From IMG/VR virus record IMGVR_UViG_2874968258_000001, positions 1 to 61,666 of that record: 61,666 nt of DNA; one strand, 5' to 3'. A program made the translations under genes and the position numbers. Every line of letters starts with the position of its first letter. Position 1 is the stretch's first letter. This DNA is from a virus. Lineage: Duplodnaviria > Heunggongvirae > Uroviricota > Caudoviricetes. Of this stretch, positions 57,810 to 58,583 are shown piece after piece. Below the pieces are notes generated by a model, which was not told the origin of the DNA, did no database searches, and was given only the letters and a program-made list of their open reading frames with translations.

Positions 57810-58583
57810 TCAAAAATTAGGTGAGTAACGGACCGGGGACATAGCTCCTTTTTTTCTTAATTCATCTGGTATTTTTTTTCCAAGATAAAGATTTGCTATT
57901 TCAGGTGGGGCTTCTCGACCTTCAAAACCATAGCGCGAACTTTGTGTTGCCTCAAAGTCAGGATCCTCGTCCCAGTATTTCAACGAAGGGAAATTTTCAC
58001 GTGTTGATTTGAGCCATTTATCAGCAATGAAAACCCCTCGAACGATCCCTCTTACAGTAGCAAGAATGATTTCTGCTTGGCTGGCGCGAGAGACATTAAT
58101 GCGCCAGCTAAATCGAACCGCATCATAAAGCTCTGAATCCTTTGCACTTCTGTTAACGGATATCATTAATGCTTTATGATGAAATGTTATGGTTTCGGGC
58201 TGATATGTTGCTATCAACTCTTTGACATGCGCGGCGCCGAATTCATTGCTGCCAGCACCATTCATGATATTCGTTAACCCAGGGTAGGCATCAATAAGTG
58301 CTGCTTCAACTTCGTACGCCGTCTTTTCATCAGTCATTCCGTGTCGATGGATGACATGGATAACTTCAAGTCCTGCTAACCTTATTTCTCTAATTTGCTT
58401 TAGCTTGTTGCTCAGTAACTCGTCATCATCAGTCGCTGCCACTTCACCGCGCATATGGGCAAATACGCGGTTACCTTTGCCTTTCCCTACATAGAAGGTG
58501 CTTCCGTCCCTCGGATCAATCAATCGGTATACATACCAGCCAAGGTGTTCAATTACTCCAGAAGGAAACTCAGTAATATCCAT
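57810..58583 (-). CDS. GIY-YIG nuclease-domain protein with ~170-aa C-terminal region of unknown function
   Basis: N-terminal [28 protein letters not shown] motif; AT-rich flanks. Confidence 0.65.

Follow-up and report, generated by a model that had tools for sequence, protein, structure and literature searches.

A GIY-YIG nuclease gene beside a restriction–modification pair

The window analyzed here is a 61,666-nucleotide stretch of Caudoviricetes DNA (positions 1 to 61,666 of the IMG/VR record IMGVR_UViG_2874968258_000001). Near its right end, between a tail-fiber assembly gene and an EcoRII-type restriction–modification (R-M) pair, lies an intact open reading frame (ORF) of 257 codons. The original prediction had described this ORF as a standalone GIY-YIG nuclease gene in a prophage accessory region; its coordinates, strand, and ATG start proved to be as claimed, and so did its setting. 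With high confidence, we assign the gene to CMoRE, also called PD-T4-3, a nuclease for modified DNA that acts against T4-like phages and is carried here as prophage cargo beside the EcoRII-type R-M genes. The gene and the parts of its product are as follows.

57810..58583, minus strand: gene assigned to CMoRE; intact ORF with an ATG start, 257 amino acids
58239..58583, minus strand: N-terminal GIYxY-YIG nuclease domain, about amino acids 1–115 (PF22945 match at amino acids 28–110; Y17, Y19, Y31, R39, and the dimer-interface residues V92 and L96)
58419..58430, minus strand: codons of D52-D53-D54-E55, the acidic autoinhibitory lid loop, located by residue check
57813..58238, minus strand: C-terminal modification-sensing domain, about amino acids 116–257, including Y127 (aligned to PDB entry 9U75; role taken from PMC12923530)

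The roles given for the residues of the N-terminal domain were likewise taken from PMC12923530. The motif letters of the window protein read G15-W-Y17-V-Y19, Y31-V-G33, and R39. The Pfam model LEM-3_GIY-YIG (PF22945) matched amino acids 28–110 with 54.2 bits, above its gathering threshold of 27, which classes the nuclease domain, and not the whole protein, as LEM-3/Ankle1-like. In the same Pfam scan, the generic GIY-YIG model PF01541 stayed under its cut-off. The NCBIfam scan returned no family, and no model of either library covered the C-terminal part. This part, which the original prediction had left unassigned at about 170 amino acids, therefore remained without a Pfam or NCBIfam assignment, but its length is closer to 140–150 amino acids, from about amino acid 111–116 to 257. 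The cargo has a GC content of 43.5%.

Identity of the window protein

The PADLOC model PDLC04031 (PD-T4-3) matched the window protein with an E-value of 7.6e-140 over model positions 1–255 of 256. A sequence search of the Protein Data Bank (PDB) returned entries 9U75/9U8D, the Escherichia coli O157:H7 protein, with an E-value of 5e-171 and entries 9U7U/9U7Z, the APEC O1 protein, with an E-value of 1.6e-150; all four are titled merely 'GIY-YIG domain-containing protein'. In a residue-by-residue comparison over all 257 amino acids, its identity is 97.3% with 9U75 and 85.2% with 9U7U. All seven substitutions relative to 9U75 are conservative. The lid loop has two of them, T51A and E55D; the other five, Q169K, I172V, N197H, S200T, and L201M, are in the sensor domain, which aligns end to end with that of 9U75. 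The acidic run of the window protein, DDDE, is that of the APEC O1 protein, whereas O157:H7 CMoRE has DDDD.

Every residue named in PMC12923530 is retained, Y17, Y19, Y31, R39, R80, V92, L96, and Y127 among them. The window protein therefore combines a full-length family match with the GIYxY-YIG motif and its three tyrosines, the acidic four-residue loop, and a C-terminal sensor containing Y127. As T51A and E55D are the only changes from 9U75 in the N-terminal domain, the catalytic arginine and glutamate are unchanged, whatever their positions. The interface residues V92 and L96, on which tetramer formation and defense depend in the published mutants, are present, as is R80. Occurrence of the gene in several prophage contexts, described below, fits a single-component system that is independent of its neighbors. 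Neither of the two objections foreseen in the original prediction, membership of a housekeeping family or dead catalytic residues, applied: the catalytic residues are all intact.

The window protein is identical to RefSeq WP_000355482.1, 'LEM-3-like GIY-YIG domain-containing protein'. Because this product name stems from the PF22945 match to the nuclease domain, the gene seems unassigned in ordinary annotation. The CMoRE/PD-T4-3 gene found here is already known: its family has been characterized and crystallized and is widely distributed. Publications from 2022 to 2026 cover the structure, substrates, and phenotype of this defense enzyme, and the value of the present assignment is descriptive.

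Published activity of CMoRE and predicted activity of the window allele

PD-T4-3 was first found in strain ECOR68 by Vassallo et al. (2022), whose phage-defense functional selection of E. coli DNA yielded 'a GIY-YIG nuclease' (PMC9519451). The system was renamed CMoRE by Liu et al. (2026), who characterized its orthologues from O157:H7, APEC O1, and Klebsiella (PMC12923530). According to that work, CMoRE makes the phages T2, T4, and T6 plate some five orders of magnitude less efficiently through direct, non-abortive immunity, and it restricts T4 containing hydroxymethylcytosine, T4(hmC), but leaves T4(C) unrestricted. T-even DNA and PCR products containing 5-hydroxymethylcytosine (5hmC) or its glucosylated form (5ghmC) were degraded, whereas products containing cytosine or 5-methylcytosine (5mC) were spared; 5mC DNA was neither bound nor cut (PMC12923530). 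Cleavage follows the pattern CN11/N9G, leaves 2-nt 3′ overhangs, and requires two modified sites; modified bases are needed, and there is no strict sequence specificity (PMC12923530).

Crystal structures revealed a tetramer whose N-terminal GIY-YIG domain has a third tyrosine (GIYxY-YIG: Y17, Y19, and Y31) and whose active site is masked by a 15-residue acidic lid loop; the lid 4A mutant, in which four consecutive acidic residues are replaced by alanine, cuts ordinary DNA and is toxic (PMC12923530). The C-terminal domain senses 5-hydroxymethyl- and glucosyl-hydroxymethyl-cytosine, where Y127, through its main-chain oxygen, bonds the 5-hydroxyl of 5hmC, and the V92S/L96S mutant loses both oligomerization and defense (PMC12923530). 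Modification-dependent cleavage was also reported for a 48% identical homologue, PD-T4-3Capno, which was weaker on Mu DNA (Rodriguez-Rodriguez et al., 2025; PMC12366544); like CMoRE, it works when cloned alone (PMC12366544, PMC12923530). In strain NILS69, deletion of the chromosomal gene raised the plating of Tevenvirinae and sensitized the strain to them (bioRxiv 10.1101/2024.12.20.629700).

Based on these publications on a 97% identical protein, the window protein would form a tetramer arranged as a dimer of dimers. In incoming DNA, 5-hydroxymethyl- or glucosyl-hydroxymethyl-cytosine would be bound by the C-terminal domain, one dimer reading two modified cytosines about 21 bp apart, and the N-terminal GIYxY-YIG domains would then cleave at CN11/N9G to leave 2-nt 3′ overhangs. 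The four-acid lid loop would repel ordinary and 5mC DNA, so that the host chromosome is spared, including the Dcm-type methylation laid down by the neighboring enzyme. The expected outcome is direct, non-abortive immunity against T-even phages. By analogy, we infer that the window allele is expressed and active, that it cleaves 5hmC and 5ghmC DNA but not C or 5mC DNA, and that it protects against T-even phages. Of the two roles suggested in the original prediction, defense or homing, defense agrees with this validated family and homing found no support. For the 97% identical protein, the literature already contains the checks that the original prediction had proposed, namely a comparison of nuclease activity between methylated and unmethylated DNA, a phage challenge, and a structure.

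The range of the enzyme may extend beyond these substrates to Mu-type N6-carbamoylmethyl-adenine or to arabinosyl-hmC. At high concentration, PD-T4-3Capno broke down Mu DNA, and its induction gave protection from Mu (PMC12366544); E. coli CMoRE conferred mild resistance to the arabinosyl-hmC phages Bas46 and Bas47 (PMC12923530). These activities are weak, though, and the Mu effect is reported for PD-T4-3Capno, not for the E. coli type I proteins. We therefore regard the wider range as a doubtful but not far-fetched extension of the assignment to CMoRE, not as a replacement for it.

Expression signals around the gene

Two noncoding features flank the gene.

57752..57790, strand not assigned: GC-rich hairpin in the gap where tfa and CMoRE converge, followed on the minus strand by UUUUUCUUUUUU
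58584..58784, minus strand: segment upstream of the CMoRE gene that accompanies it where the R-M pair is absent, delimited by the extent of homology

The hairpin at 57752–57790 folds with −23.4 and −24.9 kcal/mol (z-scores of −4.8 and −4.1), and none of 200 shuffled sequences folded equally well. With the U-run that follows it on the minus strand, it is likely the intrinsic terminator of the CMoRE transcript, as judged from its sequence; a simple consensus scan for promoters and terminators across 57600–59100 called no terminator, this hairpin included. On the other side, the spacer that separates the gene from the divergent methyltransferase gene measures 364 bp to the start of the longest ORF (58948) and 406 bp to the RefSeq start (58990), in agreement with the AT-rich spacer of about 400 bp described originally; it is poorer in GC (34.6%) than the window as a whole (51.1%). 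In R-M-less genomes, homology to this region stops at query position ~972–988, corresponding to window ~58781–58797, about 200 bp upstream of CMoRE. The segment 58584–58784 presumably holds CMoRE's own promoter. A candidate identified by eye consists of TTGTGA (58647–58642), a 17-nt spacer, and TAATAT (58624–58619), matching 8 of 12 consensus positions. A repeat search of the divergent spacer found two weak inverted repeats and nothing else, and Rfam at a permissive threshold gave nothing credible across 57700–59050.

Several points weigh against the conclusion that the window carries an active CMoRE. Seven substitutions separate the window allele from the crystallized O157:H7 protein, and function is transferred here by sequence. 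The consensus scan of 57600–59100 found no promoter with at least 9 of 12 matching positions on the minus strand of the spacer, no obvious Shine–Dalgarno sequence was seen before the CMoRE ATG, and with its native promoter the APEC O1 orthologue gave no more than weak defense (PMC12923530). The complementary role beside the R-M pair that is discussed below is, moreover, drawn solely from co-location and published substrate specificities.

In this lysogen, CMoRE might accordingly be a silent or inactive relic. Besides the missing consensus promoter and ribosome-binding site, the low GC content of the cargo and spacer would fit such a state, as AT-rich, low-GC DNA is often silenced by H-NS. On the other hand, the frame is intact, all functional residues are retained, and the copies in 838 genomes keep a nucleotide identity of 95% or more. 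Moreover, the NILS69 deletion raised phage plating, and native promoters sufficed for defense by the orthologues of O157:H7 and Klebsiella (PMC12923530). We thus consider a silent relic improbable and retain the assignment to a functional CMoRE gene.

Distribution and independence from the R-M pair

The distribution of the gene was determined in 5426 complete E. coli genomes. CMoRE was found in 838 of them at a nucleotide identity of at least 95%, and the three-gene block of CMoRE and the R-M pair in 244, that is, in 29% of the CMoRE carriers. The endonuclease allele was present in 262 genomes, 244 of which have CMoRE adjacent. The functional tie to the R-M pair that the original prediction implied is thus not needed, with R-M genes beside CMoRE in 244 of the 838 carriers. 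In the R-M-less genomes, homology that continues for about 200 bp upstream and then stops fits a self-contained module of gene plus promoter. The contexts also differ: EDL933 and TK3896 carry CMoRE behind pinE, where their e14-like prophages end, and in AMA1167 the gene comes after a tfa remnant. Conversely, FAM21845 (locus L007, 3848–8066) has an EcoRII-type R-M pair beside ssrA, with CMoRE and the rest of the prophage absent. CMoRE is therefore an autonomous gene and not an R-M component, and the association looks like one of linked cargo.

A functional part or accessory of the EcoRII-type R-M system, such as a Vsr-like T:G nickase acting after 5mC deamination or a second nuclease subunit, would account for the divergent arrangement with the methyltransferase across a shared spacer and for the adjacency in 244 of 262 genomes with the endonuclease allele. 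Against it stand the low share of CMoRE carriers with R-M genes, the persistence of the R-M pair without CMoRE in FAM21845, and the plasmid-borne EcoRII R-M genes (80% identical), which matched from query position 1099 onward and so exclude the CMoRE gene. CMoRE also works when cloned alone and neither binds nor cuts 5mC DNA. The Vsr variant had been dismissed in the original prediction, rightly so: no Vsr model of Pfam or NCBIfam matched up to an E-value of 0.1, and the fold is GIY-YIG. Given the R-M-less carriers, the varied contexts, and the published sufficiency of the single gene, we reject both the subunit and the Vsr-substitute readings as very improbable, in favor of CMoRE as separate cargo. 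Vsr itself is PD-(D/E)xK-like and normally lies immediately downstream of dcm or overlaps it; the window gene lies upstream of the methylase gene and diverges from it.

The weakest alternative, a free-standing GIY-YIG homing endonuclease spreading between related phage genomes, could draw on a weak PHROG match to the 'homing endonuclease' family phrog_314 (E-value of 0.0022) and on jumbo-phage full-length homologues deposited as 'putative homing nuclease', but it is hardly credible, since the best PHROG match is another family, phrog_5356 of unknown function (E-value of 5.7e-142), the window protein lacks any DNA-binding module of the NUMOD/IENR type, it carries as its C-terminal domain the 5hmC sensor known from a crystallized enzyme that has little sequence specificity and acts on modified DNA only, and the published biochemistry of CMoRE contradicts it. 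The window protein is likewise not of the I-TevI/Seg type, having the sensor in place of a sequence-specific DNA-binding module.

The CMoRE gene can coexist with its neighbor, as an enzyme that ignores 5mC is compatible with Dcm-type methylation. Since hmC-substituted DNA evades classical R-M systems (PMC12923530), the two systems are plausibly complementary by phage type: EcoRII would cleave CCWGG DNA that is unmodified, and the DNA that escapes by cytosine hypermodification would fall to CMoRE, giving two complementary layers. The ssrA lambdoid prophage of the window carries a type II R-M system and a type IV enzyme side by side, with non-overlapping substrate ranges.

Further observations concern the sites at which the gene is found. 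In the e14 element of K-12 (locus L005, 1209685–1211179), mcrA occupies the slot directly after pinE, at the end of the element. The post-pinE position appears to be a cargo slot in which different type IV enzymes are swapped in and out; more broadly, the slot after the tail-fiber and invertase genes of E. coli prophages repeatedly holds type IV enzymes, McrA in K-12 e14 and CMoRE in EDL933. In FAM21845, ISSen4 lies at the place of CMoRE, among several other insertion sequence (IS) elements and fragments, and homology to the window begins 18 bp upstream of the CMoRE start codon.

Outside E. coli, jumbo phages of 250–285 kb encode full-length CMoRE homologues with 37–45% identity at 97–99% coverage. 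The carriers include the Serratia phages Moabite, 2050HW, and Kodama, Pectobacterium phage vB_ParM-25, Pseudomonas phage OBP, and Klebsiella phage N1M2, and the depositors labeled the proteins 'homing nuclease' or 'endonuclease'. These homologues could serve in competition against hmC-containing co-infecting phages.

The sensor domain in other proteins

Amino acids 116–257 alone were searched against 1.84 billion representative proteins, which gave 993 matches at an E-value of at most 1e-3 and 323 at an E-value of at most 1e-10. Among the 117 matches that span most of the sensor, 39 have an N-terminal extension of CMoRE size, 31 of these with the GIYxY-YIG pattern, and 41 consist of the sensor domain alone, some of which may be fragments. 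The remaining architectures, all metagenomic predictions without a GIY-YIG domain, place the sensor next to other modules. In P0016, the sensor is preceded by an HSDR_N-type PD-(D/E)xK domain, and P0010 has an N-terminal region that resembles that of P0016 as read by eye alone. In P0139, the sensor precedes an AAA_5 (McrB-like) domain. Five proteins of 650–720 amino acids carry the sensor near the N terminus and no other recognizable domain. In ten multidomain proteins run through PADLOC, the PD-T4-3 model was matched by its C-terminal part alone, with start positions of 108–134.

The authors of the CMoRE study reported no homologues of the sensor domain (PMC12923530). A profile built from 45 sensor domains and searched against all PDB sequences found CMoRE alone, apart from two chance-level matches with an E-value of 0.56, and sequence assigned it to no known fold; this agrees with the authors in that no solved relative is detectable by sequence. 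The protein matches qualify their statement that the domain has no homologues, as the sensor appears to be a shuffled reader module. We give about even weight to a broader proposal, namely that the sensor is a mobile reader that defines uncharacterized modification-dependent systems (with an HSDR_N-type PD-(D/E)xK domain, with a McrB-like AAA_5 GTPase, and in the 650–720-amino-acid fusions) and, separately, that CMoRE and the EcoRII R-M pair were co-selected as a two-layer cassette in this prophage lineage. Shuffling of the sensor among effector types could guide the discovery of hmC-specific enzymes for 5hmC mapping.

Two further fusions were noted, one of ankyrin repeats with the sensor and one in which the N-terminal part, read by eye, carries a CX5R (HCRAGRERSG) phosphatase-like motif. 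The non-CMoRE architectures were drawn from P0010, P0016, P0139, P0035, P0057, P0106, P0116, P0122, P0014, and P0054.

Comparison with known systems

The characterized CMoRE proteins share with the window gene the length, the two-domain architecture, and the single-gene organization in prophages. The settings differ: CMoRE of the window adjoins an EcoRII-type R-M pair in an ssrA-integrated lambdoid prophage, whereas that of EDL933 stands after pinE in an e14-like element.

The closest functional analogue outside the family is PvuRts1I/AbaSI. These enzymes have the same substrates as CMoRE (5hmC and 5ghmC, but not C or 5mC), an N-terminal nuclease and a C-terminal sensor, and dimeric reading. 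Their geometry is CN11-13/N9-10G with cytosines 21–22 nt apart, read by a dimer (PMC3627594), compared with CN11/N9G for CMoRE (PMC12923530). PvuRts1I, however, joins a PD-(D/E)xK-type nuclease to an SRA-like pocket, whereas CMoRE joins GIY-YIG to a sensor that binds the base at its edge. Because both nuclease and sensor domains are unrelated, the likeness is convergence and not kinship.

McrA of K-12 e14 is, like CMoRE in EDL933 and TK3896, a single-gene, modification-dependent type IV cargo after pinE. It is an HNH nuclease that targets 5mC and 5hmC in sequence context and has no sequence kinship with CMoRE, which ignores 5mC; unlike CMoRE, McrA would conflict with some C5 methylases.

Among GIY-YIG enzymes, the type II enzymes Eco29kI, Cfr42I, and Hpy188I act on unmodified sequences and lack the third tyrosine, lid, and sensor of CMoRE, and UvrC acts on DNA damage. 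UvrC is the closest structure according to the CMoRE authors, the GIY-YIG fold being shared with its N-terminal domain (PMC12923530); that domain has no third tyrosine, 15-residue acidic lid, or sensor domain. GmrSD/BrxU are type IV defense nucleases against the glucosyl-hmC DNA of T-even phages (PMC4437046). They consist of DUF262/ParB-like and HNH (DUF1524) domains, are stimulated by nucleoside triphosphates, and have no sequence similarity to CMoRE; they did not turn up in any search made with the window protein.

Neighboring genes and prophage setting

The genes beside CMoRE and the left boundary of the prophage are listed below.

57156..57740, plus strand: tail-fiber assembly gene (tfa), the last structural gene before the cargo (Pfam Caudo_TAP, E-value of 3e-44)
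58990..60423 (longest ORF from 58948), plus strand: Dcm/M.EcoRII-type C5-cytosine methyltransferase (Pfam DNA_methylase and DNA_meth_N; RefSeq WP_001288444.1)
60458..61666, minus strand: EcoRII-type type II restriction endonuclease, 402 amino acids (Pfam EcoRII-N and EcoRII-C)
16718..16752, strand not assigned: attL of the lambdoid prophage, which repeats 35 bp from the 3′ end of ssrA (blastn, 34/35 to positions 16202–16236 of locus L001)

The domain matches of the methyltransferase and endonuclease bear out the R-M pair named in the original prediction. The methyltransferase matched NCBIfam PRK10458 with 927 bits, and its RefSeq start at 58990 is preceded by GGAGG. The endonuclease, whose gene is convergent with that of the methyltransferase, matched PDB entry 1NA6 with 808 bits (E-value of 1e-242). 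The pair has about 80% nucleotide identity to the plasmid-borne EcoRII R-M genes.

Window positions 57700–59000 were matched at 100% in E. coli AR_0081, where ssrA lies about 235 bp beyond the endonuclease gene, with smpB and ratA next. The partner repeat, attR, lies within ssrA, about 235 bp past the window's right edge. The synteny that the window shares with AR_0081 ends exactly at 16718, and a hypothetical gene and the integrase gene (18194–19369) stand just right of attL. From the att repeat and the synteny break, the prophage spans 16718 to ssrA, with CMoRE and the R-M pair as attR-proximal cargo. The cargo genes have a GC content of 42–44%, compared with 54–56% for the tail genes.

To the left of attL, window positions 1–16717 hold the tail module of another prophage, contractile-tailed and Mu/P2-like, with sheath, tape measure, DNA_circ_N, GpP/gp44 baseplate, Baseplate_J, and tail-fiber genes; an IS3-family (rve) transposase gene at 763–1581 lies ahead of its first tail gene. 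Two prophage-derived elements are thus arranged in tandem at ssrA, and AR_0081 has nrd/gab chromosomal genes there instead. Between attL and the integrase gene, a 272-amino-acid ORF (16828–17646, minus strand) matched nothing in Pfam or PADLOC and is annotated as hypothetical in AR_0081; it marks a possible second slot for cargo, at the prophage end next to int.

The side tail-fiber gene contains a 132-bp (44-amino-acid) tandem repeat at 55589–55892, in 2.3 copies that are 92% matching. The AR_0081 gene, otherwise 99.9% identical, is 132 bp longer, which points to variation in repeat copy number. Rfam hits above the gathering score were IS009 at 57499–57697 (plus strand, 229 bits), within the 3′ half of tfa, isrK at 24663–24739 (plus strand, 64 bits), and C4 antisense RNA at 24764–24851 (plus strand, 82 bits), the last two sitting in the early prophage region near ash/ant-like genes. 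According to the AR_0081 annotation, the prophage also encodes an N6-adenine methyltransferase at ~26641–27327 and a second 'DNA-methyltransferase' at 31912–32964, which together with the Dcm-type enzyme makes three DNA methyltransferase genes in one prophage.

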